Positions 9,193 through 62,930 of a stretch of DNA of 64,000 nt are shown here, in pieces (the first letter of the stretch is position 1; each line of letters starts with the position of its first letter). Position numbers and translations under genes: made by a program. This DNA comes from a virus. The DNA is taken from the IMG/VR virus record IMGVR_UViG_3300009502_000034, positions 14,566-78,565 of that record. One strand, written 5' to 3'. The notes beneath the pieces are model-generated. The model was not told the origin of the DNA, searched no databases, and saw nothing but the letters and a program-made list of their open reading frames with translations.

Positions 9193-9654
9193 ATGATACT
9201 AAAGAATGTAGTTTCAACAGGCAAGGATCTTCATGTTCAGGATATAATCGACTCAGCGGTGGTTCTGGTTTATAACACAGACACAGTCGTGCTCGAAACT
9301 CCTGGGGCAGTAAAGTCGTATCTCGTCGGCGATCTTGCAAGACTGATCACTGCTGGCACGGTCACAGTGACTCAGCCACCTTCAGCTGATGTTCCATCTA
9401 ACATAGCTGTCGGCACCGCAACTGTTTCAGCCACCACAGGCTCTATAGTGGTAACGGGCGTCCCTTCAGTTTGGGGAACCAACTACGTTGTTTTCACGTC
9501 CATAGTGTCTTCTCCAGTAACGGTTGCTAGAGTAATAGTAACCCCGGTAACTTCTTCATTCACAATTGCCGTGAAAGATGCCGCAGGTGCTGCAATAGAT
9601 ACTACAAGCGTCAATGCTGTAATATCTTACGGGATCTTTAAGTCCAATATATAA
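9193..9654 (+). CDS. putative virion structural protein (T/V/S-rich beta protein)
   Basis: composition and position; followed by a strong hairpin. Confidence 0.5.
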   Translation: MILKNVVSTGKDLHVQDIIDSAVVLVYNTDTVVLETPGAVKSYLVGDLARLITAGTVTVTQPPSADVPSNIAVGTATVSATTGSIVVTGVPSVWGTNYVVFTSIVSSPVTVARVIVTPVTSSFTIAVKDAAGAAIDTTSVNAVISYGIFKSNI

Positions 9655-9759
9655 TATAGTGTATAATCGGGGAGGGGCTGCGGCCTAATAAGCTGTAGCC
9701 CTCTCCAGAAAACTTCGTTTCAAGGGGCGAAGCTTTTCAAAACCTTATAGGGGGTTCAT

Positions 9760-11106
9760 ATGTCAGACAATAAATTCAGCCACAATCAGGTAGATGCCGG
9801 CGATGATTCTGCCGAGCTCTTCGCTGATCAAGAAATTCAGCGAATACTCATGAAGAGGGAGGCGTCCACAAACGGCATAGGCGATATTTCTAAGGCTCTT
9901 AGGAATAACACTTTTGTCGGCTCAAATTTAAAGAATGAAATAGTTGAGCTTGAAGAAAATATGCGCCAACTTCTGAGCGAAGGACGATATGGGTATAAAT
10001 TTATTGAAGGCACCCTCATGTCTTTAGGCTATCCCCTTGATGAAATACGTAACGTGTTTGAAAGATTGACCGGAGTATCTGTTGAAAAATGGATGAACGT
10101 TGATCAAATTTATGATGTTCCGGGTAGTATCCCGGGCATTAATTACGGTTGGGGCGCATCTAAAAACAGTGCGTATGATTTCTATTTTATCATGCCGTTT
10201 AAATGCGGATATTCGCTATTTGGCCAGAAGGGTGATTTGCAGAGAGACGAGGTGGATTATTCTGACACGCTAAGCAAGGCGATAGAAACACTGAAGTCGA
10301 AAGTTAAAGAAGCAGTCATATGGGATAAGCCAATCGACGCTAAAACTCTTGGTGAATTCCCTAAATCTAATTTTACACTACCAACAGTTTTTGCGCTTTC
10401 AGCCAACGAGAAGTTCAATTCTTTAGACAAATATTTATACAATAACATAGACAGACTAGATTTAGGGTCTATAGAAAAAATAATAGTCAGGGCTAAGTTA
10501 AATAATAATATTAGCGAAGACGAGTTTCAAATTCTTAAGAAAGATTATATAGATATTAAGGCAGATGAACTAGAAGAAGCAGAACCAAACAAGAGAGAAG
10601 AGAAAGAAGAAAAGGATGCCAATGCTGAGTTAAAAGACATAATGAACACCGAGGAAGAGAATGCTCTTAGTAAAAGCGTGGAAGAAGAGTTGGACGAGAC
10701 CACGCCTACCGAGTATTTTAAGAACAGTGTAGACGAAACTAAATACGAAACTCTCCCGGCCATAGTCGTAGATAAAATATATTCCTATATAGATTATAAG
10801 AACGAAAGTTTGGACACGTTTGAAATAATCATAAAAGGATTTAAATACACTTCCATAGATGTTATAGAAGATTTCCAAAATACAATTTCCATAGATGACC
10901 AGCAATCGTTCTTTGACGCTAATGCGCTTATAACAGTTATACTCGTTATCAAAAACATGGCGCTTCCACAGGATCAGCAAGAGAAGAATGCTCTTATGGT
11001 ATTCTCGGTCGTCAAAAGCGATATAGTGACCGCAGATTATTGCAAGGGGTCGGATAACAAGATGTACAGCTTAACAAATGAAGGATTATCTAAACTTTAT
11101 ATGTAG
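9760..11106 (+). CDS. acidic hypothetical protein of the head cluster
   Basis: 448 aa ORF upstream of the HNH and portal genes. Confidence 0.5.
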   Translation: MSDNKFSHNQVDAGDDSAELFADQEIQRILMKREASTNGIGDISKALRNNTFVGSNLKNEIVELEENMRQLLSEGRYGYKFIEGTLMSLGYPLDEIRNVFERLTGVSVEKWMNVDQIYDVPGSIPGINYGWGASKNSAYDFYFIMPFKCGYSLFGQKGDLQRDEVDYSDTLSKAIETLKSKVKEAVIWDKPIDAKTLGEFPKSNFTLPTVFALSANEKFNSLDKYLYNNIDRLDLGSIEKIIVRAKLNNNISEDEFQILKKDYIDIKADELEEAEPNKREEKEEKDANAELKDIMNTEEENALSKSVEEELDETTPTEYFKNSVDETKYETLPAIVVDKIYSYIDYKNESLDTFEIIIKGFKYTSIDVIEDFQNTISIDDQQSFFDANALITVILVIKNMALPQDQQEKNALMVFSVVKSDIVTADYCKGSDNKMYSLTNEGLSKLYM

Positions 11107-28636: not shown

Positions 28637-29203
28637 ATGTCAGACATTCAAAACGTCACTCAAAGACAGGGGGCAACCCCAGCAGAATTAGTGGGTAGAG
28701 TGGTAGATTCAGTCACTGGGAAGGAAACTATAGTCCCTATTAAACTTCATAGTAATGGAGATGGTACGTGGTCTCTGGATATAGCTGCCACCATCGAAGG
28801 AGATGTTATAGTTGGTGCGGCCATGAATGTGAAGAATGTTGCCGGAGCCACTATTAATCCAGCCACAGAAGACACATTATCATCTTTATGCGGCGTGGCT
28901 GTAACACCCATCTGTTCTGTGACGACAGCCTCCGGTGAGATAGTTCCAGCAACGCTTGCCAAGCAGATCAAAATAAAAAATCTCATAATTAATAATGCAG
29001 GGGCCTCAGATGTTACAGTTGGGCTTATTATTACCCAATCTTCCGCTCCTGTCACAATATATTCATTTTTGTATAAACCAGGGGTTATTTATCAACCAAT
29101 CACTGCGCCTGATTTTATATTGTGCGACGTAAACACTAATGTTGGTATAGCCCTTGACGCAACAGTAACGGTAAATTATCACATAGATTATACACTAGTT
29201 TAA
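28637..29203 (+). CDS. putative virion structural protein
   Basis: AAGGAG RBS; T/V/I-rich beta composition; INPATEDTL motif. Confidence 0.45.
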   Translation: MSDIQNVTQRQGATPAELVGRVVDSVTGKETIVPIKLHSNGDGTWSLDIAATIEGDVIVGAAMNVKNVAGATINPATEDTLSSLCGVAVTPICSVTTASGEIVPATLAKQIKIKNLIINNAGASDVTVGLIITQSSAPVTIYSFLYKPGVIYQPITAPDFILCDVNTNVGIALDATVTVNYHIDYTLV

Positions 29204-29214
29204 TAGGAGGTTTT

Positions 29215-29385
29215 ATGGCAGACGTAAATAATGTAATTGTAATAAATTCTCAAATGAACAAGGCTGATGCACAGAGACTTTTGACAGCGCTTCAAAATGA
29301 AGTAGCCAATTGGGATACGATTAAAGCCAAGCAATTAGCGGATATTCAAGCAAGAATAGTTGCGCTGCAAGCAGCGTTAGTGTAA
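29215..29385 (+). CDS. 56 aa helical protein upstream of rSAM gene (not in ORF track)
   Basis: AGGAGG RBS; MADVNNVIVINSQMNKADAQRLL...QAALV*. Confidence 0.6.
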   Translation: MADVNNVIVINSQMNKADAQRLLTALQNEVANWDTIKAKQLADIQARIVALQAALV

Positions 29386-29407: not shown

Positions 29408-30574
29408 GTGAGACTAAATACAATTGATTTAATGCTTACAAATTCATGTAATTTAAGATGTGCTTTCTGTTATATAGGTCAGAATCAGCATGATATAATT
29501 TCACAAGAAGATGAGATCAAACGCAACATAGCAACATGTGAATGGGTTTTATCTCAATATCGTGTATCTATGTCAGAGGTTGACCCACAATATAGAATAA
29601 TAAACTTTAATCTATATGGTGGTGAACCTACAATGGCATGGGAAAGTGTTAAAGCTTTAGTAGAATGGCGTAAAACTGTGTCAGATATAAATATTCAGAT
29701 GGGCTTAGTTACTAACATGGTTTTAATGGATGAAGCTAAGATAGACTATTGTATAGCGAATAATGTAGGAATTCACCCATCTATAGACGGTTGTAAATCG
29801 GCCGAAGATATGTATAGGATAACTGCCGATGGAAGTACGGTATCTGATAAGGTATTTGCCAATGCTAAAGTTTTAACTAGTAAACTTAAAGGTCGTAGTT
29901 GCAGATCTACTATAGACCCTAAGACTGCTCCATTTATGTTTGAATCTGTTAAATTTGTAACGCAAGAACTTGGTTTTACAACAGTAAACCAAGTATTGGC
30001 CGGTGGAGTAGATTGGAAAGACTCAGATATAGAAGTTGTCAAGACTCAATCTAGATTGATAACAGATTGGTGGTTAGATCAAATGCGTGTTGGAAAACAT
30101 TATTCTTTATATTATATAAGGAATATGCTAACAGGCATTTGGAATCCAATTCGCAGAAGAGGATTATGTTCAAGCGGTGTTAGTCATGCTGCTATAGACA
30201 CAGATGGTAATATTTATCCATGTCATAGATTTTGCGGAGGCACAACACCTCCTGAATATTTAATGGGTAATATCCATACTGGTGGAGTAGTAAATAAAGA
30301 ATTAGAAGATAAATTAAAAAATTTTGATTTAGCCAAATACCATAAAGACAAATGTAGTGGATGTATAGCAGTTAATTCTTGTATGGCTTTGTGCTTACAT
30401 GAGATGATGTTAAATGGAAGTATGTTTGAGCCTTTACCTCATTATTGCAAACTGTGGCCGTTTTATTATGCAGAAGCAATGAGAGCACACGCAATAATGG
30501 ACGCAGAGAGAAATCAGTTGTATTACCAAATCTATCGTCCAAGACCTGCTCAAAATCAGGTTAGGAGAAACTAA
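29408..30574 (+). CDS. radical SAM/SPASM-domain peptide/protein maturase (anSME/ranthipeptide-maturase-like)
   Basis: CNLRCAFC (CxxxCxxC), YGGEP, SIDG; SPASM cysteines CSSG...DGNIYPCHRF...CSGC...CMALC...YC; no N-terminal RRE. Confidence 0.93.
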   Translation: MRLNTIDLMLTNSCNLRCAFCYIGQNQHDIISQEDEIKRNIATCEWVLSQYRVSMSEVDPQYRIINFNLYGGEPTMAWESVKALVEWRKTVSDINIQMGLVTNMVLMDEAKIDYCIANNVGIHPSIDGCKSAEDMYRITADGSTVSDKVFANAKVLTSKLKGRSCRSTIDPKTAPFMFESVKFVTQELGFTTVNQVLAGGVDWKDSDIEVVKTQSRLITDWWLDQMRVGKHYSLYYIRNMLTGIWNPIRRRGLCSSGVSHAAIDTDGNIYPCHRFCGGTTPPEYLMGNIHTGGVVNKELEDKLKNFDLAKYHKDKCSGCIAVNSCMALCLHEMMLNGSMFEPLPHYCKLWPFYYAEAMRAHAIMDAERNQLYYQIYRPRPAQNQVRRN

Positions 30575-31854
30575 TGGCCTGTGTAACAAACGATTTAGTA
30601 TATGGCGGACCTTGTAGTTATTGTGACCAAGGCCCCTGCATTTTCTGTGACCAAGGCCGTTGCTCTTCTTGCGACCAAGCCACCTGCTACTCTTGTGACC
30701 AAAGCACTTGCAGTGTTTGTGACCAAGGTAAATGCTCTGCTGGAGACAATGGCTGTTGTAATTATTTAGATGCAGGTAAGTGTAGTTTATCAGATTCTGG
30801 AATATGCTCTGGAAACGATTCTGGTAAATGTAGTAATGGTGACCAAAATTTTTGTAGTAATTGTGACCAAGGACGTTGCTGGAATGGAGATGTAGGCCCT
30901 TGTGTTGGTTGGGACATCGGCCCCTGCTCGTATTGCGACCAAGCCTCTTGTTCTGTCTGCGACCAAGGCCCCTGCTCTTCTTGCGACCAAGCCCGTTGCT
31001 CTTCTTGTGACCAAGCTCGTTGTGCTGGCTGTGACCAAGGCCCCTGCTCTTCTTGTGACCAAGCCGCTTGCCCACATTGTGACCAAGCCTCTTGTTCTGT
31101 CTGCGACCAATGGTCTCACTGCCCTAACGACATCGGCCCCTGCTCGTATTGTGACCAGGCTTCTTGCACAGGATGTGACCAAGGGAAATGTTCAGGTTGT
31201 GACCAGGCTTCTTGCACAGGATGTGACCAAGGGAAATGTTCAGGTGGGGACCAGGCTTATTGCGTAGGATGTGACCAAGGGAAATGTTCAGGTTGTGACC
31301 AGGCTTCTTGCTCAAATTGTGACCAAGCTCGTTGTGCTTCGTGTGACCAAGGCCCCTGCTCTTCTTGCGATCAACGCTGGTGCTCTTCTTGCGACCAAGG
31401 CTATTGTGTTGGCTGTGACATCGGATATTGTATAAACTGTGACCAAGGGAAATGTAGTGGTGTAGACCAAGGGAAATGTTCTGCTGGAGATATTGGGCCA
31501 TGTAGAAATACTGATGCAGGTATTTGTTCTGCTTGTGATGAAGGACATTGTAGCAATGGAGATAATGGTTTATGTTTATTGTGTGATGATAGTCCATGTA
31601 AAATTAATGATATTACTGATTGGCCTTGCTCTCAAAATGATTCTGGAAAGTGTTCAAGTTGTGACCAAGGTTATTGTACAAACTGTGACCAAGGGAAATG
31701 TAGTGGTGAAGACCAAGGGAAATGTGCTGCTGGAGATGTTGGACCTTGTACTAACTGCGACCAAGGTCCTTGCTTAGCAATGGATGTAGGCGGTTGTACG
31801 GCAAGCGACATGCCAGTTTATTTAATTATGACTAATGTAAAAAAAAATAGATAA
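30574..31854 (+). CDS. Cys-rich 8-residue repeat protein with 50 C-x3-D motifs; probable substrate of the adjacent rSAM enzyme
   Basis: TAATG coupling to rSAM; consensus unit G/A-x-C-x-x-C/G/N-D-Q counted by hand. Confidence 0.85.
   Translation: MACVTNDLVYGGPCSYCDQGPCIFCDQGRCSSCDQATCYSCDQSTCSVCDQGKCSAGDNGCCNYLDAGKCSLSDSGICSGNDSGKCSNGDQNFCSNCDQGRCWNGDVGPCVGWDIGPCSYCDQASCSVCDQGPCSSCDQARCSSCDQARCAGCDQGPCSSCDQAACPHCDQASCSVCDQWSHCPNDIGPCSYCDQASCTGCDQGKCSGCDQASCTGCDQGKCSGGDQAYCVGCDQGKCSGCDQASCSNCDQARCASCDQGPCSSCDQRWCSSCDQGYCVGCDIGYCINCDQGKCSGVDQGKCSAGDIGPCRNTDAGICSACDEGHCSNGDNGLCLLCDDSPCKINDITDWPCSQNDSGKCSSCDQGYCTNCDQGKCSGEDQGKCAAGDVGPCTNCDQGPCLAMDVGGCTASDMPVYLIMTNVKKNR
30607..31812 (+). repeat. 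24 nt-period coding tandem repeat array
   Basis: recurring TGTGACCAAGG / TGCGACCAAG every 24 nt. Confidence 0.85.
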
Positions 31855-32505: not shown

Positions 32506-32711
32506 TAAAGCAGTATAATCTAAAGAAGAGAGGGAAAAATATGACTAGCGTGGACATACAAAAGTTTGTAAATAGGGCCAACATAACTGTAAAAGCAATG
32601 AAAAAGAATACGGAGGAAATGGCAGGTATAAACGACGACTTGCGTGAGGCCATATGCACAGTAGAACAACTATCCCAAGCGTTTACCGGGAAAATAAAGA
32701 ATGGTAAATAA
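32502..32711 (+). CDS. small hypothetical protein (start probably at MTSVD)
   Basis: GAGGG RBS before the internal ATG; overlaps the ligase start. Confidence 0.4.
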   Translation: MIKQYNLKKRGKNMTSVDIQKFVNRANITVKAMKKNTEEMAGINDDLREAICTVEQLSQAFTGKIKNGK

Positions 32712-35700
32712 TGCGCTAGAAATAGCTGCATTCCGTAAAGACATTATCAAGTTAAATCCTATATCTCAAATGTTAACTGAGTACAAGGATAATCTTGATA
32801 TGAAGCTTTACACATTCGATGAATTGAAAACCTTTATTGGTAATCAAAAAGCAACAGTATCGATCAAAATTGATGGAGAAATATGTCTGTCTGGAGATAC
32901 ATCAGTTAAGTTGTTGGACGGCACACATAAAACCGTTAAACAGTTATATGATCTCGGCGCTAAAGATTTTTACGTCTATAGTATAGATCAACAACAGGCT
33001 GTTGTCCCCGGTAGGTGTTCATCAGTTGTGTTAACCGGTAAAAATAAAAAGGTGTTAAAAATAACACTAGATAATGGTGAATTTTTTAAGTGCACCGAGA
33101 ACCATAAAATCATGTTAAGAAATGGCGAATATATAGAAGCTAAAGCATTAGTTGCCGGGGCATCTTTAATGCCGTTATATACGAGAATCTCTATTAGGGA
33201 AGATCATAAGGGAATAGTTGGTTACGAGATGTGCTATAATCTCACAACTGATAAATGGGAATGGACTCATAAAATGGTGGCTCAAAGCATATATGAGGGC
33301 ACGTTTAAAAATAAGGCCATACATCACAAAAATTTTAATAAACTTAACAACGTTCCAGATAATTTGTTAATAACCGACTGGGATGAACATGTTAAGTTGC
33401 ACAAAGAATTAGCATATAAAGGAATGATGGCATACAGAAATGATCCTGTGACTGGGCCTTTGTGGAGAGAGAGGCAAAAAAGGTCTCATTTAGCCATTTC
33501 CGATAGTAAAAGCAAAAACATTAAAATAGCATTAAGTGATCTCAGTGTTCGTAAATCTCTTTCAGAAGCCAATATTAAGGCTTGGAAAGATCCAGTTGTA
33601 AGGGCTAAGCGCTCTATTGGCATTAGCAAGGGGAATACTGGTAAGGTCAGAACACAAGAGTTTAAGGATCTCCAGAGCATTATACAAACTAAATTACAAA
33701 ACACGTCAGAATCCAAGAAAAGGAATAGTGAGAAAGCCAATGCGTTTTGGGCCTCAAACAGTGGAGTTAAGAGAAAAGCAAGAATGATTGTCAATGGCGC
33801 CGAGATTATGGCTTCTCGTTGGAAAGATGAAAATATGGTTAACAAAATGAAGCTTGGAATGGTTAATGCTTGGGCTCACAAAACCGCAGAAGAAAAATCT
33901 CTTAACGCAAAAAGGGGATGGGAAACTAGAAGGGTTAAAAAAGTAGCGGTTAATCATAAGGTAGTATCAATAGAAGAGTGTGGGTACGAAGATGTATATG
34001 ATTTAAGCATGGTTGAACCGGTGCATAACTTTGCTTTATCATGTGGAATTTTTGTGCATAATTGTGGTGTAAAATATGATGGTCAAAGAGCCATCACCTA
34101 TACCAGGGGCGGGATGATTCGTTATGACATGCCGCTCACCAAAGAGATGGAAGAAATGTTCGCTCACAATGGCATATCAGAATTTACTGGCATAGGCGAG
34201 ATGTTCGTTGTTAAAGAAGACGGCATGCCGCTGAGTTATCTTAAGGCTCAATCAATACTCAGATTGCCAAAGAACCTTGAAGAAGAATCTAGAATGAAAA
34301 TGATGATGTTTGATGTGTATAGCATTAATAATAATGTTATTATAAATAATCCATTGAGCGAGAGAATACAAAAAATACATACAATATTTAGTAAAGACGG
34401 TAAATATGTCATTCCAGCGCACTACGAAGAGAACGCAGGAATGGCAGAAATAGACAATCTTTGGAAGAAGGTCTTGGCTCCGGAAGAATATGGCTACGAG
34501 GGCCTAGTTGTTCATATTAATGATAAAATAATTAAGGTGAAGCCAATTTTGTCCTTTGATATGGTTATCGTCGCTATCAACAGGAGCAGGACTGATCCGG
34601 GGATGATAAGTGCTGTTGTAGCTTCTTTTATGGATAAGGCTGGTCATTTTAGATTCCACGGCAAGATAGGGTCAGGATTTTCCGACCATGATAGACAATT
34701 GCTTTTCAGATGGGCTGAGCAGAACAAGGTGTTTGAGGATGATACCGGGCAAATATGGGTAAATCCATTTAAACATCCGTTAATAGCTGAAATACAAGGT
34801 GAAGAGGTTAGCATCAAGGATGGCCCTGCATATAAATTTGAAAACAATAATTGGATAAGGATAGAAGATAAACTTACTGGTGTCGTAAGATACCCGGTAA
34901 TTATACAATTTAGGCCAGATAAGAGAACTACACCAAGCGATTTAAGATTGGCGCAGATACCAGGATTTCCTGAAATTAAAGCATATCTGCAAAGGGCTGG
35001 TGGCGAACCTATTCATCCAGATGCAATGGTTATCCCTCCGTCTCCTTATAACAATGAGGGATTAACTGAGCGTGATGTTTGGCAATATTACAATGATAAT
35101 AAAGAAGCAATCATCCACAATTATAAGGAGAATGAACAAGCAGTGCCTCTCAAGGCTATGATCGGTATTATGACTAATGAGGGGCTACTTTATAGGCGTA
35201 AAGACGAAAACGATAAAGAGTTAGATTTTACCAATCCATCTGAATACGATTTGAATAATACTGGTAGGACAGTCACTATGAATTTTGTTCTTGGTGATGA
35301 GGTTGACTTTATATATGTCGATGTAGACCCACAACAAGAATTTCCTCTTGAAGATACTAAGAGAATAACTGAAGAGCTGGCAGAATATTTTCAGGAAAGC
35401 GATACCATAAAAGAGGTACAAATCTTTTTTAACGGGCTTACTGGATTTCATGTATATGGCGTGCTAAAACAAGCAACCCCAATAGATGAAGCGTCAGAAA
35501 TGTTAAAAGGTATAATAAGGGAATATGTCGATTCTACTCCGGATGAAAGGATAAGTGTTGGTCAAGAGAAACAGCCAGGGACAATTAAGCTTGACATATC
35601 CACATTTCATAAAGGCGGCGGATTGAAAATACCATATTCTCTGCATGAAATTACAGGTTTAGTGTGTAAGAGGGTTGAGGATATTAAATCATTTAAATAC

Positions 35701-35763
35701 GAAGATGCTGCAGGGTATATCATGAAACAAGCAGGACTTATAAATGTTGGAGGAAAACAGTGA
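32701..35763 (+). CDS. ATP-dependent DNA ligase fused to LigD-like primase-polymerase (AEP) domain, intein-containing
   Basis: motif I KIDG, GEM, FDV, YEGLVV, KVKP, KIGSGFS, RYP..IQFRPDK; C-terminal HPD...LTERDVWQYY, YVDVDP, FNGLTGFHVY, PYSL. Confidence 0.85.
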   Translation: MVNNALEIAAFRKDIIKLNPISQMLTEYKDNLDMKLYTFDELKTFIGNQKATVSIKIDGEICLSGDTSVKLLDGTHKTVKQLYDLGAKDFYVYSIDQQQAVVPGRCSSVVLTGKNKKVLKITLDNGEFFKCTENHKIMLRNGEYIEAKALVAGASLMPLYTRISIREDHKGIVGYEMCYNLTTDKWEWTHKMVAQSIYEGTFKNKAIHHKNFNKLNNVPDNLLITDWDEHVKLHKELAYKGMMAYRNDPVTGPLWRERQKRSHLAISDSKSKNIKIALSDLSVRKSLSEANIKAWKDPVVRAKRSIGISKGNTGKVRTQEFKDLQSIIQTKLQNTSESKKRNSEKANAFWASNSGVKRKARMIVNGAEIMASRWKDENMVNKMKLGMVNAWAHKTAEEKSLNAKRGWETRRVKKVAVNHKVVSIEECGYEDVYDLSMVEPVHNFALSCGIFVHNCGVKYDGQRAITYTRGGMIRYDMPLTKEMEEMFAHNGISEFTGIGEMFVVKEDGMPLSYLKAQSILRLPKNLEEESRMKMMMFDVYSINNNVIINNPLSERIQKIHTIFSKDGKYVIPAHYEENAGMAEIDNLWKKVLAPEEYGYEGLVVHINDKIIKVKPILSFDMVIVAINRSRTDPGMISAVVASFMDKAGHFRFHGKIGSGFSDHDRQLLFRWAEQNKVFEDDTGQIWVNPFKHPLIAEIQGEEVSIKDGPAYKFENNNWIRIEDKLTGVVRYPVIIQFRPDKRTTPSDLRLAQIPGFPEIKAYLQRAGGEPIHPDAMVIPPSPYNNEGLTERDVWQYYNDNKEAIIHNYKENEQAVPLKAMIGIMTNEGLLYRRKDENDKELDFTNPSEYDLNNTGRTVTMNFVLGDEVDFIYVDVDPQQEFPLEDTKRITEELAEYFQESDTIKEVQIFFNGLTGFHVYGVLKQATPIDEASEMLKGIIREYVDSTPDERISVGQEKQPGTIKLDISTFHKGGGLKIPYSLHEITGLVCKRVEDIKSFKYEDAAGYIMKQAGLINVGGKQ
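32884..34062 (+). mobile_element. intein with HNH endonuclease in DNA ligase (393 aa)
   Basis: CLSGDT start just after KIDGEI; CTENHK block B; THKMVA...IHHKNFNKLNN HNH; VYDL...HNFAL..IFVHN followed by Cys +1. Confidence 0.92.
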
Positions 35764-54651: not shown

Positions 54652-55080
54652 ATGAAAGACTTTAAATTTTTAGGCAGTAATGACACAAAAACATATGGAA
54701 ACTTTAATGATATATCCTATGATAGTAATGGGGAGGTTGCGCTGGTTGAATCTACGGCAAAACTTAGACAGGACATGGCTAAAATATTACTGACCGATAT
54801 AGGTGAGCACAAGGTGTTTCAGGGGTATGGCAGTGACCTACAATCGTTGATTAATGCAAATGTTAAAAGTGATACCATTAAAAAACAAATAGTCAACTCA
54901 ATCACATATGCATTTTCTTACTTAAATCAGATAAATCAGTCAGCTGATTTAAATGAAAAAATAGACACTATTAACAGTATTGATGTTAGGTATGCAGCAA
55001 ATGATCCAAGGGCAATTTACATTAGGATTCAGGCTACCTCTGGAACTAATGAAACAATAACATTAACCTTCGGAGGGTAA
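54652..55080 (+). CDS. baseplate wedge protein gp25/GPW-like
   Basis: KLRQDMAKILLTDIG...YGSDL...DPRAIYIRI. Confidence 0.8.
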   Translation: MKDFKFLGSNDTKTYGNFNDISYDSNGEVALVESTAKLRQDMAKILLTDIGEHKVFQGYGSDLQSLINANVKSDTIKKQIVNSITYAFSYLNQINQSADLNEKIDTINSIDVRYAANDPRAIYIRIQATSGTNETITLTFGG

Positions 55081-55084
55081 TAGT

Positions 55085-56551
55085 ATGCTTAAGTCGTATT
55101 CTACGGCATATCAAAGCTTAGTAGCACAGATTAAAAATAGTAATAGGAATATCAATACCGGGCCTAATACAGTTATTAATGATACCTGCATTATTCCAGC
55201 GGCTCAGGAAATAGTGAGAGAAACAGCCATTGCAGATTATATACAAAGGTTACAATCGTTAGATTTAATCATCTCTATGCTTGGGGACGTCAACTATCTC
55301 TCAGTGATAGCGTTTGCCTACGGCGTTGGTGTAAACGATGTTATAAGCGATATAGAAGACTATATAGATAAGCTTGGGTCTAATTATGATTTAATACGGA
55401 GGGGAGCAGCGTCAGCAGATGGTATAGTCTATTATGCAAGATATACACCGTTAATTGCCGGAGATTCTGATATCACAATATCAACCGGGTCTATTGTGTC
55501 ATCTAAGGCAAGTGGCGTCAAATATCAGGTGGTCGCTGATGTTACTATGTATGCGGTTTCTGGTGGGACGTATTATGATTCTGATCTTCAGGCATATGCT
55601 ATTCCAGTTCCGGTACAAGCGGTTAACGCAGGGTCAGCCGGTAACGCTTCAAATAATAGCATAGATAATATGGACACAGCGACAGCGGGGATGGATTTTA
55701 TAACCAATAAGGCTCCAATAGCGAATGGGACCGATGAGGAAACAGACCTAGATTTTATAGCACGCATACGATTAGTATATTCAGGCAATAATGTTGGCAC
55801 TTTAGATGGGTATAAAAAATTGGTTCTAGAAAATAGCGCAGTTACAGATTGTTATGTGGCCGGTGCAACAGATAGTTTTATGACACGTGATCAAGGATAT
55901 GGCGGCAAGATCGATATTTACATATTAGAGAATCAGATAGCTCAGGCCGTAGCCACAGTTACGGTTGCAGCAGAGACTTTTGTGTTGCCAAATCAACCAG
56001 TGTCTTCAATAGTTAGTATTAGTGGTTATGGTGCGTTGGCCGTACCATTATTTGAAGGTAATTATAATCAGGATTATGAGGGCAGTTTATTGGCATCGGC
56101 TCGTGTGAGATGGTTAAACTTTGCCGTAAATCCGCCAACCATTCCATACACAGTGACCTATCTTTATAATAGCAATATACAGACTATACAAAATCTTGTA
56201 AATCAAGTGAAGAATAAAATAGTATTTGGGCAGTTTGATGCAGCGCTTGTAAAGCAAGCAATAGAGGCACCGGTAGATATTATATTTAGTATAGCGGTTT
56301 TAAGTGGCTATTCTAAAGCATCTGTGGCTCAACAAGTTCAAACCTTAATATCAACAACTATAGATAAATATAAAATGGGAGTAGAACTTCAACAGTCTGA
56401 TATGATAGCACTGGCTTATACAATACCAGGGCTAGATCAGGTCCATGAACCGATGGTGAAATTTAATAGAACAAGTTTAACAGGTGTTAAAGACACTATT
56501 ACTGTGTCTGGTAGAGAATATATACGTGCAGGTAATGTTATAATTTCTTAA
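55085..56551 (+). CDS. baseplate J-like protein
   Basis: AVNAGSAGN, NGTDEETD...RI, GGKIDIYI motifs. Confidence 0.85.
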   Translation: MLKSYSTAYQSLVAQIKNSNRNINTGPNTVINDTCIIPAAQEIVRETAIADYIQRLQSLDLIISMLGDVNYLSVIAFAYGVGVNDVISDIEDYIDKLGSNYDLIRRGAASADGIVYYARYTPLIAGDSDITISTGSIVSSKASGVKYQVVADVTMYAVSGGTYYDSDLQAYAIPVPVQAVNAGSAGNASNNSIDNMDTATAGMDFITNKAPIANGTDEETDLDFIARIRLVYSGNNVGTLDGYKKLVLENSAVTDCYVAGATDSFMTRDQGYGGKIDIYILENQIAQAVATVTVAAETFVLPNQPVSSIVSISGYGALAVPLFEGNYNQDYEGSLLASARVRWLNFAVNPPTIPYTVTYLYNSNIQTIQNLVNQVKNKIVFGQFDAALVKQAIEAPVDIIFSIAVLSGYSKASVAQQVQTLISTTIDKYKMGVELQQSDMIALAYTIPGLDQVHEPMVKFNRTSLTGVKDTITVSGREYIRAGNVIIS

Positions 56552-56560
56552 GGAGTTTTT

Positions 56561-58144
56561 ATGGCAACGCTCGTAACCAAAGGCATGAACGCATTATATT
56601 ATTCACGTGTGGATATGCTAAATAAATTTGTGTATAACAAAGACACAAATATTATTCCATATATGCCAGACCGTGAGTTTTTATTCACAGATTGGTACCC
56701 GCAATATTCAGTTGGTACAGTTTTAAAGGCAATAGTCAATGGCGGTACGCCAATTCTGTGCATGGTTCTAGACACGCTTGGAACGATATATTTTAATGGC
56801 AAATATCCGTATGGATTTTCTAAAGTGGTTATTACTGATAATTCTAATGTTGTTTTAAAGTCGTATGAATATTTAGCCGTAAACACGTACTTATATTATG
56901 AAATAGAGTCTTCGGAAGAGATGGACAGGCTTGTAGAAAAAGCCAGAATAAAGAACGATTCAATATTTGATTTAGCTCGTGATGACCAATTATATAATAA
57001 TTTTGGATCCTTGATGTACGCTAGACAACCGAGTGACTTTTCAGCGTCAGAGTACCGAACTATGCTGACTGGGCTAAAAGAAGCATACTTGAATGGCGGT
57101 ACAATATATGCCATGTCAACTGCGTGTTTTGCCATTACAGGTGCTACACCAACAATAGACCAGACACTACAAAGCTGGAAGGTGTATAAATATCCTAAAC
57201 GTGATGGCGCTAACGTGCTACAAACAAAAAAAGAATTAATATTTCGTGACAACTTGGCCACTTCTGATTTTCTTTCCACAACCATATATGGGGCACCAAG
57301 CACATTAAGTTATATTAGTGTTTATGATTCGTATAAACAATATGCACCGACAACTGATTATACAATATCAAATGTTGGTAGCAATGGGAAAATAACGTGG
57401 GTTGGCGCAACGCCTACTCCAACAACGTATTATACTGTAGAGTACGCCACTGTGGCTGCAACACAGACACATAGTTTTGTGCACGATATTCCGAATGAAG
57501 AAACAAGGATAAAGGTTAACCCTGGAGTAGTAACGTATTCTGGTAATCAAAAAGCGTACAGCGTTATTTTGACAGTTAATAATTCGTCAAGAGCAGTAAC
57601 GGCAGAGCGAGTAGTGAAGGCCGGAGATGGCGAAGAAGACGTTTTGACCAATCGTAATATGGCAAAATTTGACGTAAATAATGAAATGCATATTGGGGTT
57701 GGGTGGGCGACAACAACGTTCACGCTTGGTTACGACACCTCTAAATATTCTGTGGTGCCAAATAGCGTAAGCGATATTATCATATTGTATACAGGGTTGA
57801 CCAACACAACAACGCAGTTGACAGAGGGAGTGGATTTTACGGTCAACAGAGGTAGTGGCGTGGTGACATGGATTCATCCGCCGCCTCTTAATATTGATTT
57901 TACAGTTTCATATTCTTATGGAAGTTTAACAACAATTGTCGCTGACTCTATAACATATTATGAGGGTGTGGACTACACCTTAGATAGAGACGGTGGAACT
58001 ATATTATGGGGTACCGGGGCGCAGCCTGCCAAGTCTTACATATATACCGTAAATTATAGATATATTTTAAAAGATATTATAAGCAATGTTATAGAACGTC
58101 TTAAGCCAGCTCATATTCGTGTAAATTATGTGTATAATTCTTAA
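56561..58144 (+). CDS. baseplate wedge protein (gpI-like with Ig-like insertions)
   Basis: LYNNFG...EYR..L...GGT; C-terminal IERLKPAHIRV. Confidence 0.7.
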   Translation: MATLVTKGMNALYYSRVDMLNKFVYNKDTNIIPYMPDREFLFTDWYPQYSVGTVLKAIVNGGTPILCMVLDTLGTIYFNGKYPYGFSKVVITDNSNVVLKSYEYLAVNTYLYYEIESSEEMDRLVEKARIKNDSIFDLARDDQLYNNFGSLMYARQPSDFSASEYRTMLTGLKEAYLNGGTIYAMSTACFAITGATPTIDQTLQSWKVYKYPKRDGANVLQTKKELIFRDNLATSDFLSTTIYGAPSTLSYISVYDSYKQYAPTTDYTISNVGSNGKITWVGATPTPTTYYTVEYATVAATQTHSFVHDIPNEETRIKVNPGVVTYSGNQKAYSVILTVNNSSRAVTAERVVKAGDGEEDVLTNRNMAKFDVNNEMHIGVGWATTTFTLGYDTSKYSVVPNSVSDIIILYTGLTNTTTQLTEGVDFTVNRGSGVVTWIHPPPLNIDFTVSYSYGSLTTIVADSITYYEGVDYTLDRDGGTILWGTGAQPAKSYIYTVNYRYILKDIISNVIERLKPAHIRVNYVYNS

Positions 58145-58156
58145 TAGGAGAAACTA

Positions 58157-59338
58157 ATGGCCTGTGTAGCAAACGATTTAGTATATGGCGGACCTTGCAG
58201 TAATTGTGACCAAGGCCCCTGCACTAACAACGATCTAGGCCCTTGCACTAATCTTGACGCCGGTCTGTGTTCTAGTGGGGATTTCGGTGCATGTTCTTCC
58301 TGTGACCAAAACAGATGCTCCTTCTGTGACCAGAGTAGGTGCTTCTTATGTGACCAAGCCGCTTGTTCTGTCTGCGACCAGTGGTCTCACTGCCCTAACG
58401 ACATCGGCCCCTGCTCGTATTGCGACCAAGCCTCTTGTTCTGTCTGCGACCAAGGCCCTTGTGCTTCGTGTGACCAAGGTAAATGTTCTGCTGGAGATGT
58501 TGGGCCATGTCAACAAAATGATTCTGGAAAGTGTTCTGGTTGTGACCAGGCTTCTTGCACAGGATGTGACCAAGGGAAATGTTCAGGTGGGGACCAGGCT
58601 TCTTGCACAGGATGTGATCAAGGGATATGTAAAGGATTAGATGCAGGTATTTGTTCTGCTTGCGATGAAGGACAGTGTATAAATGGAGATAAAGGAAGCT
58701 GTTTCCAAGGAGATGACGGACATTGTGGCAGTGGAGATAATGGTTTATGTTTATTGTGTGATGATGGGCCATGTAAAATTAATGATATTACTGATTGGCC
58801 TTGCTCAAATACAGATTTAGGCCCATGTAGAAGTTGTGATGAAGGTCAGTGTTTAAATAATGATTCTACAAGATGTATCTTTACAGACGATTCTACTGTT
58901 GGCCCATGCGCTAATTGCGATCAAGGAACCTGCTCCAGTGTTGATGTGGGCCCATGTTCAACCGCAGATGCACCACCAGAACAGGTCACTGGTGTAAGTG
59001 TTTTTAAAAGTGATTTGTATGCGGTTATTAAATGGGATCCCAACACTTCAGCAGTTATCACATCATATGATATTTGGAGAACAGCCAATACTCATGGGTA
59101 CGGTTATACAAAAATTGCGACAGTCACCTCAAACGATAGCTACGGTAATAAAAATATTGTTTATGTTGATGCGGATATAAAATATAACACCCAATATTTT
59201 TATAAAATTGTAGCAACAAATACCGATGTTAGCGGAGAGTTTAGCAATGAGGCTTCAGCCGTATACGTCCCAAGTATTGCAGATTCTGATGTTCAATACC
59301 CAACTAGAAAAAACAGCAACACTAGTTATTTTAATTAA
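58157..59338 (+). CDS. Cys-rich repeat protein (32 C-x3-D motifs) fused to C-terminal fibronectin type III domain
   Basis: same MACVxNDLVYGGPC start as 30574; FN3 from ~58973: PPEQVTGV...IKWDPN...SYDIWR...YFYKIVATN...SGEFSNEASA. Confidence 0.85.
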   Translation: MACVANDLVYGGPCSNCDQGPCTNNDLGPCTNLDAGLCSSGDFGACSSCDQNRCSFCDQSRCFLCDQAACSVCDQWSHCPNDIGPCSYCDQASCSVCDQGPCASCDQGKCSAGDVGPCQQNDSGKCSGCDQASCTGCDQGKCSGGDQASCTGCDQGICKGLDAGICSACDEGQCINGDKGSCFQGDDGHCGSGDNGLCLLCDDGPCKINDITDWPCSNTDLGPCRSCDEGQCLNNDSTRCIFTDDSTVGPCANCDQGTCSSVDVGPCSTADAPPEQVTGVSVFKSDLYAVIKWDPNTSAVITSYDIWRTANTHGYGYTKIATVTSNDSYGNKNIVYVDADIKYNTQYFYKIVATNTDVSGEFSNEASAVYVPSIADSDVQYPTRKNSNTSYFN

Positions 59339-59350
59339 AGGAGATTCACA

Positions 59351-61342
59351 ATGAAAACAGTAAAAATATTCGGTGATATGGAGATTCTCACAGAGGACCA
59401 CAATTTAATCCAAAATAACAAGGATAATGAGATTAGGAAGCGTGTGTCAGATATATTCCAAAATGGAATAGTTAATACAGCGACGCCGTTTCCAATTACT
59501 GTTAATTCCGGAGATCACACTAAAATAGATATAGGCCCCGGTGTTGCCTATAATGCTTTAGGTGAGAGGATTGAGATATTCTCCGGAGAATCAGTGGTAG
59601 CAGATACGCAAGTTGCTACGGTGACTGTCGGATTATATACCTGGCCGCTGTCTCTTGATAGTTCAGATGCGCAAATACAAGCACAACCAATTCCATATTC
59701 CACAGGTAATGTCGGTATATCTTTGTATCCCTCATATGCAGCTGCAGTAACCAACTACATATTCATAGATAGAGTTGATACTCTTGCAGACTTAAATCAT
59801 TATGATGCGTCTACCGATAATTATACGTGGGGCGACTGGAATAGTAGAAATACCAAGTATTCCACAGATCAGGAAACTGGTATTAAAATGTATCCATATA
59901 AGAAAAATGGATATAGAATTATAATGGAGGCCACGCCAACATGTGTAGCGGTGCAGGCAAACGGGTCATATATCCACAATCTTTATCCGAATGCCGTATA
60001 TATTGGGAGCGTAAAAAGCACTGGCATTGGGTTATTAACATCAGCAAACATAGATATAGATAATAGCACTATCAGACAGAAGTTCCTTCAGAATTATAAA
60101 ACTGTAGGAATATATGTCCCGGCGACCACATCAGAGGCTACGGCGACATATAATCCTGGTAGTTACTCAGATCTTAAGGCGCATATAGCGGCTGTTGGTA
60201 GTCCGTCATACGGCGGTGGCTCAGGGATAGTCAGTGCGAATAACCCTCATGGGCAGACCATTTACGACCTTGGGTATACTGGTCAGGATATGACCACCCA
60301 CAGAAATGAGGAACACACGGCGTTTATTATTAACGGGTCAACTCCAGTAACGTCGAATATCAGTCTTTTGTATCCCGTGATAGATGGTTCTGCGCTAACA
60401 ACAATCCATCTATATATGCCACCCGGCGATTGGGGGATAGTGTCAGGTGGTAAAAGGTTTTCGGCGTCAGATATTGCGTCAGCTAACAGCGTTACCACTG
60501 GGATTTGGACGCACACATATGGTACCGGTGGTAATCGTTCAGTATATATATACATAGACAACTCCGGTAAAATTAATACAGATGACACTGTTTCTTTAGC
60601 ACAAATAATCGCAAATGATTATTTACTTATATGCACCATGGATATCGTCGGCGGCACGGGAGAGATTGTTGTGCCAGGAACGGTAAATTCAGGCGTGATA
60701 GATCGGCGCACGTTTGGTTCTATATCAACCAAGAATATTAACTCTGGAGCAAATCAACAGGGGGCGTCTTTAATTCCTGTCGGCGCTATCATGCAATTTT
60801 TAGGAGTGTCAGATGGTTGGTTAGAACTAAAGGGCCAAACCATCAGCTACGATCCGAGTTCAGTGTTAGCCACTGTAACCGGAGTGCAATATTACGACTT
60901 AGTGCAATATCTGAGAAATCTTCCTGGCTCACCATTTATATCAGTAACATCAACAAGCTGTGCCGTGCTCCCAGACATGAGGAATAAGTTCCCTATAGGA
61001 GTAGATGCCGGAGCAGTTAATGGATCAGCCAGAGTGTTGGGAGTGGGCGGCGGCAGTCACACAATTTCCCTTGTTGCGGCGAACATACCACATCATGCGC
61101 ACGTGACAGATAATCCAGGTGACCACGCTCACAGGCAAAGATATTACGTTGATGGTCCAACAAGTGACCATTACCCTGGGTATAACTACGCAACCAATGA
61201 AGGCGGTACAACATATAACACATGGCCTTCAGGCGCCCACACACATAGCATGGTTAGCACAAACGGCGGTACAGCCGTTAGTGGGTCTAGTGTCACCACC
61301 ACTCCGCCTTTTGTTCCAATGTATTTCTGTATTAAGTATTAA
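59351..61342 (+). CDS. tail fibre protein with tail-collar domain
   Basis: PVGAIMQF..DGWLELKGQ...LPDMRNKFPIG...GGS...NIPHHAH...HTH...PPFVPMYFCIKY. Confidence 0.8.
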   Translation: MKTVKIFGDMEILTEDHNLIQNNKDNEIRKRVSDIFQNGIVNTATPFPITVNSGDHTKIDIGPGVAYNALGERIEIFSGESVVADTQVATVTVGLYTWPLSLDSSDAQIQAQPIPYSTGNVGISLYPSYAAAVTNYIFIDRVDTLADLNHYDASTDNYTWGDWNSRNTKYSTDQETGIKMYPYKKNGYRIIMEATPTCVAVQANGSYIHNLYPNAVYIGSVKSTGIGLLTSANIDIDNSTIRQKFLQNYKTVGIYVPATTSEATATYNPGSYSDLKAHIAAVGSPSYGGGSGIVSANNPHGQTIYDLGYTGQDMTTHRNEEHTAFIINGSTPVTSNISLLYPVIDGSALTTIHLYMPPGDWGIVSGGKRFSASDIASANSVTTGIWTHTYGTGGNRSVYIYIDNSGKINTDDTVSLAQIIANDYLLICTMDIVGGTGEIVVPGTVNSGVIDRRTFGSISTKNINSGANQQGASLIPVGAIMQFLGVSDGWLELKGQTISYDPSSVLATVTGVQYYDLVQYLRNLPGSPFISVTSTSCAVLPDMRNKFPIGVDAGAVNGSARVLGVGGGSHTISLVAANIPHHAHVTDNPGDHAHRQRYYVDGPTSDHYPGYNYATNEGGTTYNTWPSGAHTHSMVSTNGGTAVSGSSVTTTPPFVPMYFCIKY

Positions 61343-61367
61343 AATTTGCTTTAAAGGAGAACCGAAT

Positions 61368-61553
61368 ATGAAATGCTTTCAGACTATTTGTGGCTTTAGG
61401 AAAAAATGTATAGGACCAAAATGCGCTCTCTATATAGTCCTATATACTAAAGATGAAAAGGACGTAACTGTTGAAAAGCCTATGTGCTCATTTAGAGCTA
61501 GTGTAATTGCACAACTTGATATGGCAAATAATGTTGATAAGCTAAAGAGGTAG
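61368..61553 (+). CDS. small Cys-containing protein after tail fibre
   Basis: AAGGAG RBS before in-frame ATG 61368; C..C....C..C pattern. Confidence 0.5.
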   Translation: MKCFQTICGFRKKCIGPKCALYIVLYTKDEKDVTVEKPMCSFRASVIAQLDMANNVDKLKR

Positions 61554-61563
61554 ATAATAGAAT

Positions 61564-62400
61564 ATGCCAAATAAATACGGATGTCGCAAACAAGATAGGG
61601 ATGCAAGAGATCACATATTTATGGCACCAAGAATGGTTTCGCTGCCAGCCAAAATGGATCTTAGACTGTACGATTCTCCAATAGAGAATCAATCTCCGCT
61701 TGGCGCCTGTGTTGCGCATGCCACCACATCGGCTTTAGAGATGTTGGAAATTAAGGCCTCTGCCCCAAAGCTTTCAGTTTTGGCGTGGATTAAATTGACT
61801 GCCATAAAGGCTGGTAGAGCAGTGCTTAATTTTTTTAGGATAATAAATTGGTATTCCAAAGACTTAAGCAGGTTGTTCGTGTATTATAATGCTAGAGATT
61901 TGGAGGGTTTGGCAGACTCTGATAGCGGTTGCAATATTAGAGATGCCATTAAGGCGTTAGCCACTCAGGGAGTGTGTAATGAAAAGGAATGGCCATATTC
62001 CCCAAATATGGTGTCGACTAAACCGAGGGACGACTGTTATTCTTGCGCCAGCGCACACAAGGTGGATGAGTATAAGGCCATACAAACCCTAGATGATATA
62101 AGGTCTTGTATAGCATCAGGGTATCCAGTAGTGATTGGTATGACAGTTTATTACTCATTTGAGTTTGGCAGCATTAATCAGACAGGAATAGTAGAGATGC
62201 CCAAAGAGGGAGAGTCTATCATCGGTGCCCACGCTGTGCTTGTAGTTGGATATGATGATACAAAACGTCTGTTAATTGTGAGAAATTCCTGGGGCGATAA
62301 GTGGGGTAAGGGTGGGTATTTTTATCTTCCTTATAATTATGCCAAAGACCCAAGCTTAGTATGGGATTGTTGGGTAATGTATAAAATGGAGGGAGAATGA
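61564..62400 (+). CDS. C1 (papain-like) cysteine peptidase
   Basis: QSPLGACVAHA, LSRLFVYYNAR, HAVLVVGY, VRNSWG..WG..GY. Confidence 0.9.
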   Translation: MPNKYGCRKQDRDARDHIFMAPRMVSLPAKMDLRLYDSPIENQSPLGACVAHATTSALEMLEIKASAPKLSVLAWIKLTAIKAGRAVLNFFRIINWYSKDLSRLFVYYNARDLEGLADSDSGCNIRDAIKALATQGVCNEKEWPYSPNMVSTKPRDDCYSCASAHKVDEYKAIQTLDDIRSCIASGYPVVIGMTVYYSFEFGSINQTGIVEMPKEGESIIGAHAVLVVGYDDTKRLLIVRNSWGDKWGKGGYFYLPYNYAKDPSLVWDCWVMYKMEGE

Positions 62401-62930
62401 GTTTACAAGATGATCTAGAAAAAGCCGATCAGCCTGCCACGCCAAATTCTCAGGATCATTTTAACCTGTGTTTTAAGTTTACGATGGCTGAAGAGTGTTC
62501 TCCTGGAGATTATAAATCTAATACTGAAGGAGACACCGGTGGTAGAACCGTGTGTGGAATAGCTGAGTCTTCACACAGCAAAGAGTTGCTAGATAATTTG
62601 TGGATGCTCTCATATGAGGATGCGATATTCGCTGTTAAACCTCTGTATTGGAAAGAATATTGGTTGCCAATTGGTGGCCCGAATATTGCAGATGCGCACT
62701 ACGCTTTATGCTGTTTTGATGTCGCAGTGAATAGTGGAATTAATAGGGCTAATGATTTTATGAAGTTGCATCAAGATGTTAATGGCATATGTGACGCAAG
62801 AATAGCACTATTGAATAGGTTTTATCCAAATGGATATTGGCTAACCAACGATAATGGGGAAAAATATGATGCGTTGCCAATGCTTAAAGACCGTGTAGAA
62901 AGATGCAGAAATTGGGCTCCAAACACATAG
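62397..62930 (+). CDS. glycoside hydrolase family 108-like endolysin
   Basis: EE...DTGGRTVCGI; YWKEYW; FDVAVNSGINRA. Confidence 0.75.
   Translation: MSLQDDLEKADQPATPNSQDHFNLCFKFTMAEECSPGDYKSNTEGDTGGRTVCGIAESSHSKELLDNLWMLSYEDAIFAVKPLYWKEYWLPIGGPNIADAHYALCCFDVAVNSGINRANDFMKLHQDVNGICDARIALLNRFYPNGYWLTNDNGEKYDALPMLKDRVERCRNWAPNT

Follow-up and report, generated by a model that had tools for sequence, protein, structure and literature searches.

Thioether formation by radical S-adenosylmethionine (SAM) enzymes has been described for small secreted peptides and for a handful of proteins that act in cells. QhpD introduces intramolecular Cys-to-Asp/Glu thioethers into a polypeptide that is retained as a structural subunit of a larger assembly, and the substrate of the maturase CteB is a peptide of about 45 amino acids (aa) with six Cys. 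PapB cross-links CX3D/E motifs six times in PapA, connecting the Cys sulfur to the Asp β-carbon (PMC9413430). Its recognition element for peptides that are made by ribosomes and modified after translation (RiPP recognition element, RRE) comprises residues 1–86, and cross-linking still proceeded in vitro with PapB lacking this element as well as with leaderless substrates (PMC12715619). The closest published case to the system described here is protein-level ranthionine formation in a methanogen, where the SPASM radical SAM enzyme CrpC of Methanococcus voltae installs ranthionine-type thioethers on the ~29-kDa Cys-rich protein CrpA (PMC13692751, 2026); in the full-text literature we found no report of virion proteins as targets of a thioether or SPASM system that a phage encodes. 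Here, we analyzed a phage gene located at 58157..59338 of a 64,000-nucleotide (nt) stretch of DNA, termed the window (IMG/VR record IMGVR_UViG_3300009502_000034, positions 14,566 to 78,565). Its product, the 58157 protein, combines 32 Cys-X3-Asp motifs with a fibronectin type III (FN3) domain and, based on its motifs and on a paralogue encoded next to a radical SAM/SPASM enzyme, is likely a second substrate of this enzyme.

The freyrasin system of Paenibacillus polymyxa (PapB/PapA) is similar in that PapB is the best-matching family of the phage enzyme and both systems pair a radical SAM/SPASM enzyme with a substrate, putative in the phage, of in-line repeated Cys-X3-Asp motifs. PapA, however, is a short, leader-bearing peptide in which the motif occurs six times, whereas the phage protein has 393 aa, 32 motifs (50 in the paralogue and up to 69 in relatives), an FN3 domain and no leader. 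Likewise, PapB has an RRE, whereas the 29408 enzyme is phage-encoded, lacks this element, and its presumed 58157 substrate lies 27.6 kb away among baseplate genes. Of the features of a ranthipeptide precursor, the 58157 protein has the Cys-X3-Asp/Glu motifs but not the short length with a cleavable leader; it may work like a ranthipeptide without being a RiPP in the strict sense. QhpD, acting on QhpC (TIGR03906), is the second-best family, although the 29408 enzyme scores 124 bits against a QhpD cut-off of 453; QhpC is a small globular subunit with a few cross-links and a cleaved leader, whereas the phage array is periodic and has no dehydrogenase context. The CrpC/CrpA system parallels the phage in its protein-level substrate, in the Cys placed ahead of the acceptor in each motif and in a second protein, CrpB, sharing the CrpA N-terminus as the two phage paralogues share theirs. 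Yet, compared by published description, CrpC is archaeal and cellular with an RRE that is modelled to bind the CrpA N-terminus, whereas the phage enzyme has none and the N-terminus shared by the phage paralogues is not conserved in relatives. CteB (5WGG), the SCIFF maturase (TIGR03974), is likewise a thioether-forming SPASM maturase of a Cys-rich peptide, but has an N-terminal RRE of about 95 residues that is missing here. Finally, the FN3 domain is reminiscent of Ig-like/FN3 decoration proteins such as T4 Hoc and the FN3 modules of the tip attachment protein J; like Hoc, the 58157 protein is small, dispensable-looking and encoded among structural genes, but none of these proteins has a Cys-Asp array or a modifying enzyme.

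Results

A diverged Cys-X3-Asp array fused to an FN3 domain

The array gene (58157..59338, + strand) is an intact open reading frame (ORF) of 393 codons with an ATG start and a ribosome-binding site (RBS) AGGAG, read from the sequence, at 58146..58150 (+), 6 nt 5′ of the ATG. Its product divides into an array part (residues 1–273; 58157..58975, +), an FN3 domain (residues ~274–372; 58976..59272, +) and a C-terminal tail of ~21 residues, SIADSDVQYPTRKNSNTSYFN (59273..59338 including the stop codon, +). An alternative reading frame as the true gene was rejected, as the RBS and the run-on into the FN3 domain exist in this frame only. The initial annotation had read 32 C-x3-D motifs followed by an FN3 domain, which the ORF translation, the fn3 homologues and the modelled fold bear out.

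The 32 motifs are located at residues 3–271, and the acceptor is Asp in every one of them. They follow each other at spacings of 8 (27 times), 11 (twice), 10 and 16 residues, with 31 of the 32 in strict 8-residue phase, whereas 2000 shuffles of residues 1–273 yielded 6.5 ± 2.2 motifs and never more than 14. Of the 273 residues in the array part, 48 are Cys, compared with 0.86% in seven other large ORFs of the window. The consensus octad reads C-[S/T]-x-[C/G/N]-D-[Q/x]-G-x; deviating from it are the first unit, an 11-residue CVANDLVYGGP that starts at residue 3 and places a Gly-Gly at residues 11–12, and the irregular units WSHCPNDI and CKINDITDWP.

On the DNA level, both synonymous codons are used for the two conserved positions (Cys1, TGT 21 and TGC 11; Asp5, GAT 19 and GAC 13), and the 24-nt units have a mean identity of 48% with zero identical pairs, which rules out a recent tandem DNA amplification. 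This codon mixture and the low DNA identity between units show that selection acts on the protein, and the array is an old, diverged repeat kept by it.

The FN3 assignment rests on homology and on a modelled fold. Residues 274–367 match Pfam fn3 (PF00041) with an E value of 7.6e-4 and 20.1 bits, under the gathering score (25). When the last 126 aa were used as query, an exhaustive HMMER search retrieved 918 representatives, 135 of them at E ≤ 1e-10; for the most part these are proteins of great length that match in many stretches. Each of the eight that were scanned is a Pfam fn3 protein (E 1e-16 to 5e-47). The AlphaFold model of the region, calculated from an alignment of 14 of the shorter homologues, reached a predicted local distance difference test (pLDDT) score of 83.5 and a predicted template modelling score (pTM) of 0.75, with β-strands over residues 278–369. 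Foldseek returned FN3 domains as the top matches in the PDB (probability 1.00, TM by target about 0.8; Robo3 FN1, titin Fn3 and an Fn3-like protein of Clostridium thermocellum), and, among viral structures, FN3 modules that belong mainly to tail proteins (tip attachment protein J, minor tail proteins). Residues ~274–372 combine a β-sandwich FN3 fold with homology to bona fide FN3 domains. A PDB sequence search with the C-terminal region yielded nothing useful, and a search among proteins of near length no match.

FN3 domains of phage proteins are usually accessory binding modules. Attachment of the 58157 protein via its FN3 domain is a guess; the short C-tail could just as well be the attaching part, or there may be none. 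This tail was modelled with low confidence (pLDDT < 50 over the last ~11 residues, mean 49 over model residues 111–120), and the last ~21 residues can be put forward only as a candidate docking peptide. Among the 150 best FN3 matches listed, no array–FN3 fusion was found in another genome, save for a fragment of the 58157 protein itself, so that the fusion appears so far to be unique to this phage.

The array protein as a mosaic paralogue of the enzyme-adjacent array

The second array gene of the window (30574..31854, +) starts within an overlap with the stop codon of the enzyme gene and encodes 426 aa with 50 C-x3-D motifs, comprising an octad array (30574–31812, +) and a 14-aa tail. These are the two arrays in total on the source record, which has 78.6 kb and is rated 50% complete in IMG/VR. 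Alignment of the two proteins gave 54.5% identity across 308 columns, and their genes share DNA blocks of 53–105 nt at 92–96% identity. Their first 14 residues are alike bar one (MACVANDLVYGGPC and MACVTNDLVYGGPC), and the irregular units CSVCDQWSHCPNDIGP and CKINDITDWP occur in both. In the alignment, the 58157 copy corresponds to the 30574 copy minus several internal stretches, plus the FN3 domain. In agreement with the initial annotation, which had proposed a paralogue of the enzyme-linked array at a distance of 27 kb, the 58157 protein is, judged by this alignment, a true mosaic paralogue of the 30574 protein. Given the common unit types and the near-identical blocks, both would be expected to serve as substrates for an enzyme reading the motif.

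A further proposal of that annotation, that the N-terminal 14-mer serves as the recognition element of the enzyme, found no support. None of the relatives has the 14-mer, arrays are for the most part placed internally or at the C-terminus, and the first 67 nt of the two genes are 95.5% identical, on par with the other shared blocks. For the closest relatives, with enzymes of 74%, 68%, 65% and 63% identity, the presumed substrates start with MCTKCDEG, MGKCSQCDQ, a Tat-type signal and MPCDLCDQ, respectively. The shared 14-mer is readily explained by shared ancestry through a recent duplication or gene conversion, and recognition through the motif would be the better fit to an enzyme without RRE.

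A mosaic of this kind might also arise as a by-product of recombination between a repeat gene and a structural gene, leaving a functionless recent duplicate or an assembly chimera. The near-identical blocks, the internal deletions and the fusion being found nowhere else among the listed FN3 matches would all agree with such an origin, as would the single array gene in each of the complete relatives described below. We consider it highly improbable, since the 393-codon frame is intact with its own RBS, Cys1 and Asp5 are kept in 32 of 32 units, and the 54.5% protein identity speaks for a long divergence outside the shared blocks. A single-assembly chimera was ruled out, as both gene junctions are found without differences in contigs of four studies (see below).

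A phage radical SAM enzyme lacking an RRE

The enzyme gene (29408..30574, +) encodes 388 aa matching Pfam PF04055 (E 3.6e-8) and PF13186 as well as NCBIfam NF047865. The radical SAM motif CX3CX2C is formed by C14/C18/C21, and the SPASM region, scoring 22.5 bits with PF13186 (cut-off 21.5) and E 9e-13 with TIGR04085, displays a seven-Cys pattern of C254, G-x4-C272, C316-x2-C319-x5-C325-x3-C329 and C347. The cysteines of both regions are invariant in four homologues. Among 54 NCBIfam families, rSAM_PapB (NF047865) matched best, with an E value of 1.2e-45 and 156.2 bits, followed by QhpD (E 5.9e-36) and the SCIFF maturase. The closest solved structure is CteB (5WGG; E 7.6e-26), residue 100 of which aligns to residue 7 of the phage enzyme, and the latter begins only 13 residues ahead of CX3CX2C. 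Because the alignment starts as late as CteB residue 100, the 29408 enzyme has no RRE. In view of the in vitro activity of PapB without its RRE and on leaderless substrates, independence of a leader is plausible.

Relatives of the enzyme in GenBank phages reach at most 27% identity (Campylobacter phages and faecal phage contigs), and in representative bacterial and archaeal genomes no enzyme exceeded 31% over any aligned segment or 25% over most of its length. On these searches, the clade is so far known from phage and metagenome DNA only. Directly upstream of the enzyme, there is a 56-aa ORF (29215..29385, +) without a Pfam family. It is conserved in position and at 62.5% identity in L027 (9831–9989), a metagenome contig of the clade described below, and may be a partner of the enzyme.

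Enzyme and octad array occur together in unrelated phages

We define the enzyme clade by 37–74% identity to the 29408 enzyme (the individual values being 36% for G002 and 36–38% for G003). Ten loci at ≥ 37% carry flanking DNA (G001–G003, L027–L030 and L032–L034), and all ten have an octad array near the enzyme, adjacent in six and 1–2 kb off in four; as the L030 array copies the end of the G001 array, they represent at least nine genomes. Among metagenome loci with an enzyme of ≤ 31% identity, by comparison, only one of 72 has an array, a short one of 6 units, and the nearest locus outside the clade, L035 (31%), shows only an irregular Cys/Asp-rich ORF upstream.

Where the context is readable, the arrays reside mostly in tail, lectin-like or other structural proteins. 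The complete 200.9-kb genome G001 (enzyme 49%) encodes, just upstream of the enzyme and in a structural block, an 833-aa protein with a Ser-rich linker, a Laminin_G_3 domain and 69 units, which matches "virion structural protein" PHROGs. A 1.8-kb contig, L030 (enzyme 49%), has 8 units directly upstream of the enzyme that repeat the last 65 residues of the G001 array, and is probably the same phage or a near-identical one. In G002 (60.2 kb, complete; enzyme 36%), a tape measure protein (phrog_1533, E 1e-55) and a 312-aa protein are followed by a 1218-aa open frame ending in a long array; the enzyme follows this gene across the record ends, and the array protein is found at its full length of 1270 aa in P0155. 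G003 (39.6 kb, complete; enzyme 36–38%) has a 427-aa Thr-rich protein with about 9 units in its tail module, located after the presumed tape measure (coiled-coil, no family match) and two small proteins, with the enzyme two genes on; L033 and L034 (metagenome contigs, enzyme 37%) are G003-like. The metagenome proteins P0001–4 and P0155–7 are large, with NHL-like, Laminin_G and Ser/Pro-rich linker parts, and have their arrays internally or at one or the other terminus. Taken over all relatives, the array is in most cases a free terminal element, consistent with an array that is displayed while the other end is attached. The initial proposal of a structural or adsorption appendage rather than a secreted peptide gains independent support from these structural proteins (G001–G003, P0001–4, P0155–7).

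The enzyme of L027 (metagenome contig) is the closest, at 74% identity, and is followed downstream by an array protein of 38 units with a 175-aa C-terminal domain, for which BLASTP detected no similarity to the 527-aa protein encoded upstream of the 58157 gene. L027 is a related phage that has the capsid and the pre-enzyme gene in common with the window. The gene before its enzyme cassette (9241–9816) encodes a 192-aa protein with an FN3 domain (PF00041, 26.4 bits), the C-terminal part of which resembles a 188-aa protein at the same place in the window (28637–29203; 36% over 69 aa). We further observed that phrog_18079, of unknown function, matches the octad arrays of P0001 (E 6e-9) and P0002 (2e-6) and not those of the window, indicating that some array proteins are already present, unnamed, in phage protein collections.

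Three metagenome contigs of the clade look different. In L028 (4596–6923; 62.5% GC, enzyme 65%), a 226-aa protein just upstream of the enzyme starts with a Tat-type signal (MKRRDFLK...) followed by 24 octads, with TPR genes nearby, and may represent a cellular, exported version of the system. L029 (3830–4570; enzyme 63%) encodes a 247-aa array protein of 26 units with a hydrophobic, membrane-like end beside a YadA-head fibre-like protein, while in L032 (3580–3849; enzyme 68%) there are only 4 units, in a peptide of about 65 aa. Together with the fact that this enzyme class normally makes released RiPPs, these three would suit a modified product that stays off the virion, be it a multi-core precursor cut to small cyclic peptides or an intact stapled protein, with a role during infection of the cell or once it has lysed, for example in killing other microbes, signalling, scavenging of metal or counter-defence. 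The Gly-Gly at residues 11–12 of the 58157 protein and a papain-family peptidase with a weak C39-like match, encoded two genes downstream at 61564, could be fitted to the same scheme. However, the 58157 protein has no signal peptide, positions 6–8 of its units vary so that there is no conserved cleavage site between them, and its array is fused to a folded FN3 domain inside a baseplate–fibre gene run. Moreover, the Gly-Gly N-terminus is missing from relatives, the peptidase adjoins an endolysin and may belong to lysis, and the arrays of other phages are integral to proteins of 830–1270 aa, of tail or lectin-domain type where assignable. We consider a product of this kind unlikely.

To examine conservation within the octads, we used C-x3-[D/E] to pick 359 units in phase from 13 proteins, which represent about 11 genomes (the two window arrays, L009, L026, L001, L027–L029, L033 and P0001–P0004). 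The acceptor is Asp, not Glu, in nearly all of them and the spacing stays at 8, while the other positions vary. A second Cys, at position 4, is found in 64%, and it goes along with Gln/Glu at position 6 in 209 of 231 octads (90%), compared with 34 of 128 (27%) without Cys4; this holds in most of the 13 proteins. There are hence two octad types, which a second cross-link or a metal site could explain.

This covariation, and the CxxC of about half of the units, a classic metal knuckle, might point to a 58157 copy that the enzyme leaves alone. Its free cysteines would then make it either a CxxC string that binds metal (Zn, Fe or Cu) or a rod knotted by disulfides, whether part of the virion or not, with the 30574 protein as the sole substrate. 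The 27.6 kb to the enzyme would fit as well, and the authors of the CrpA study suggest that CrpA may bind metal (PMC13692751). On the other hand, the second Cys is missing in 16 of the 31 in-phase units of the 58157 array (36% family-wide), whereas none of the units has lost Cys1 or Asp5, and in Cys4 sites Asp would be an atypical partner. Furthermore, PapB-type enzymes need little beyond Cys-Xn-Asp/Glu (PMC12715619), and an enzyme reading such a motif would not distinguish paralogues with the same unit types and near-identical blocks. An unmodified 58157 copy is, in our estimate, quite unlikely, and modification of both copies by the 29408 enzyme is the reading that we pursue.

Position among baseplate genes and in lake metagenomes

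The array gene is co-oriented within a run of tail and baseplate genes. Upstream of the baseplate genes lies the sheath gene (43224), and the run includes a gp25-like sheath initiator (54652–55080, +; PF10934 and PF04965, both under gathering scores), a Baseplate_J-like wedge subunit (55085–56551, +; PF04865, E 9e-20; phrog_6, E 2.4e-28) and a 527-aa protein (56561..58144, +) that is structural by position only, with a weak match to phrog_807 (Ig-like tail protein, E 2.5e-4). The array gene follows the stop of the 527-aa gene, which ends at 58144, after a gap of 12 nt, and another 12 nt separate it from the gene of a 663-aa tail fibre protein (59351..61342, +) with its own AGGAG, of which residues 489–649 match phrog_8469 (tail fiber protein, E 9.3e-7). 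No terminator-like site was found on the + strand between 53118 and 63329. The placement in a baseplate–fibre gene run read by the initial annotation is confirmed by these gaps, the RBS and the lack of a nearby terminator-like site.

Downstream of the fibre gene follow a papain-family peptidase (61564–62400, +; Peptidase_C1, E 1.6e-19, with the weak C39-like match) and an endolysin-like gene (62397–62930; phrog_315). From its position between the fibre gene and the endolysin-like gene, the peptidase could be a lysis enzyme or a processing protease. Elsewhere in the window, a 1020-aa ORF (32701–35763, +) appears by eye to be a host protein interrupted by an intein-like insert, with a CLSGDT... 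block near residue 62, ...VHNC near residue 470 and an endonuclease-like insert in between.

DNA of this uncultured phage was found in freshwater and lake metagenomes of four studies from 2016–2020. Contigs of these studies (four runs) span 56561–58411 and 58777–61342 with 0 differences, covering both junctions of the array gene, and the middle of the array is covered by short contig pieces, also without differences. Apparent joints inside 58215–58640 are due to cross-mapping of contigs of the paralogue. Array length variants were not seen in the contigs, which cannot exclude rare ones. The C-terminal part of the fibre gene (60913–61077) is represented by an additional contig variant in a single freshwater run (X7), which differs at 14 positions, with the rest of the 4.8-kb stretch being identical; this variant is local microdiversity.

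Searches for related neighbourhoods gave no counterpart. A blastn search of 55000–62000 against GenBank phages had no match, and tblastn of the array protein against the same phages gave spurious low-identity matches only (Enterococcus phage 156 and, on the opposite strand, the variable region of Bordetella phage BIP-1). For the 527-aa protein and for Baseplate_J, pattern scans of IMG/VR revealed no relative. Baseplate_J is absent from G001–G003, and PDB searches with the 527-aa protein (no relative) and with the fibre protein yielded nothing useful.

Discussion

Our analysis suggests the 58157 protein to be a late, virion-associated accessory protein at the periphery of the baseplate. Its residues 1–273 would be processed in trans, in the host cytoplasm, by the RRE-less PapB-like 29408 enzyme of the phage, each Cys at octad position 1 becoming joined to the Asp at position 5 by a thioether (ranthionine) bond. 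Recognition would proceed through the repeated motif itself, with no leader, and the product would be a row of up to 32 small rings with three-residue spacers, forming a protease- and redox-resistant acidic filament. The FN3 domain and the short C-tail would constitute the folded end, docking to, or binding beside, the wedge and fibre proteins, and the filament would serve as a stiff surface appendage (adhesin or spacer), a role that such arrays also seem to have in phages unrelated to this one, on tail and other structural proteins.

The steps of this model differ in strength. That the arrays are substrates is suggested by the nearest enzyme families, which form Cys–Asp/Glu thioethers, from the conserved Cys/Asp pair and from the co-occurrence of enzyme and array across unrelated phages, and we hold it probable that the arrays are stapled; if they are, the 58157 copy is very probably included. 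With arrays residing mostly in structural and lectin-domain proteins, and with the 58157 gene lying between baseplate and fibre genes, a virion appendage is the best reading, and we lean towards the 58157 protein being part of the particle. The complete chain, from stapling of the 58157 protein by the 29408 enzyme to a virion appendage, we regard as evenly poised. A more general statement is offered tentatively and leans slightly towards doubt: tailed phages may build poly-thioether filaments into their particles, with a leaderless, RRE-less enzyme stapling 32 to 69 Cys-x3-Asp units, here in two proteins whose genes lie 27 kb from each other, the first close to the head genes and the second among those of the baseplate.

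Several observations weigh against stapling in trans and display on the virion. The 29408 enzyme scores 156.2 bits against a PapB equivalog cut-off of 340 and is not filed as a PapB equivalog, so that the acceptor atom or even the reaction type may differ from PapB. The 58157 gene begins 27.6 kb beyond the end of the enzyme gene, and the complete relatives G001–G003 have one array gene each, leaving action in trans without a parallel case. Some relatives do not look virion-bound, given the Tat-type signal of L028, the hydrophobic end of L029 and the ~65-aa peptide of L032. The covariation of Cys4 with Gln/Glu6 is unexplained by a simple C1–D5 model, and no phage with a related baseplate was found for synteny, the nearest Baseplate_J relative being Bacillus phage G gp188 at 28% identity. 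Finally, AlphaFold gave no confident model of the array: prediction of the whole 58157 protein from its single sequence reached a pLDDT of 37.6, which is not informative on the array shape.

If true, the 58157 protein would be the first case of RiPP-type radical cross-linking of a virus structural protein, in a family holding the largest ranthionine array known. The 29408 enzyme would be a natural example of leader- and RRE-independent processing of dozens of successive motifs, a property for which PapB is now being engineered. Its two substrates, one adjacent and bare, the other distant and FN3-fused, would offer a clean system for studying motif-only recognition. For the phages themselves, the model would mean that surface appendages can be made resistant to proteases and redox change without disulfides, and it suggests an ability of phages to introduce chemical cross-links into components of their particles.

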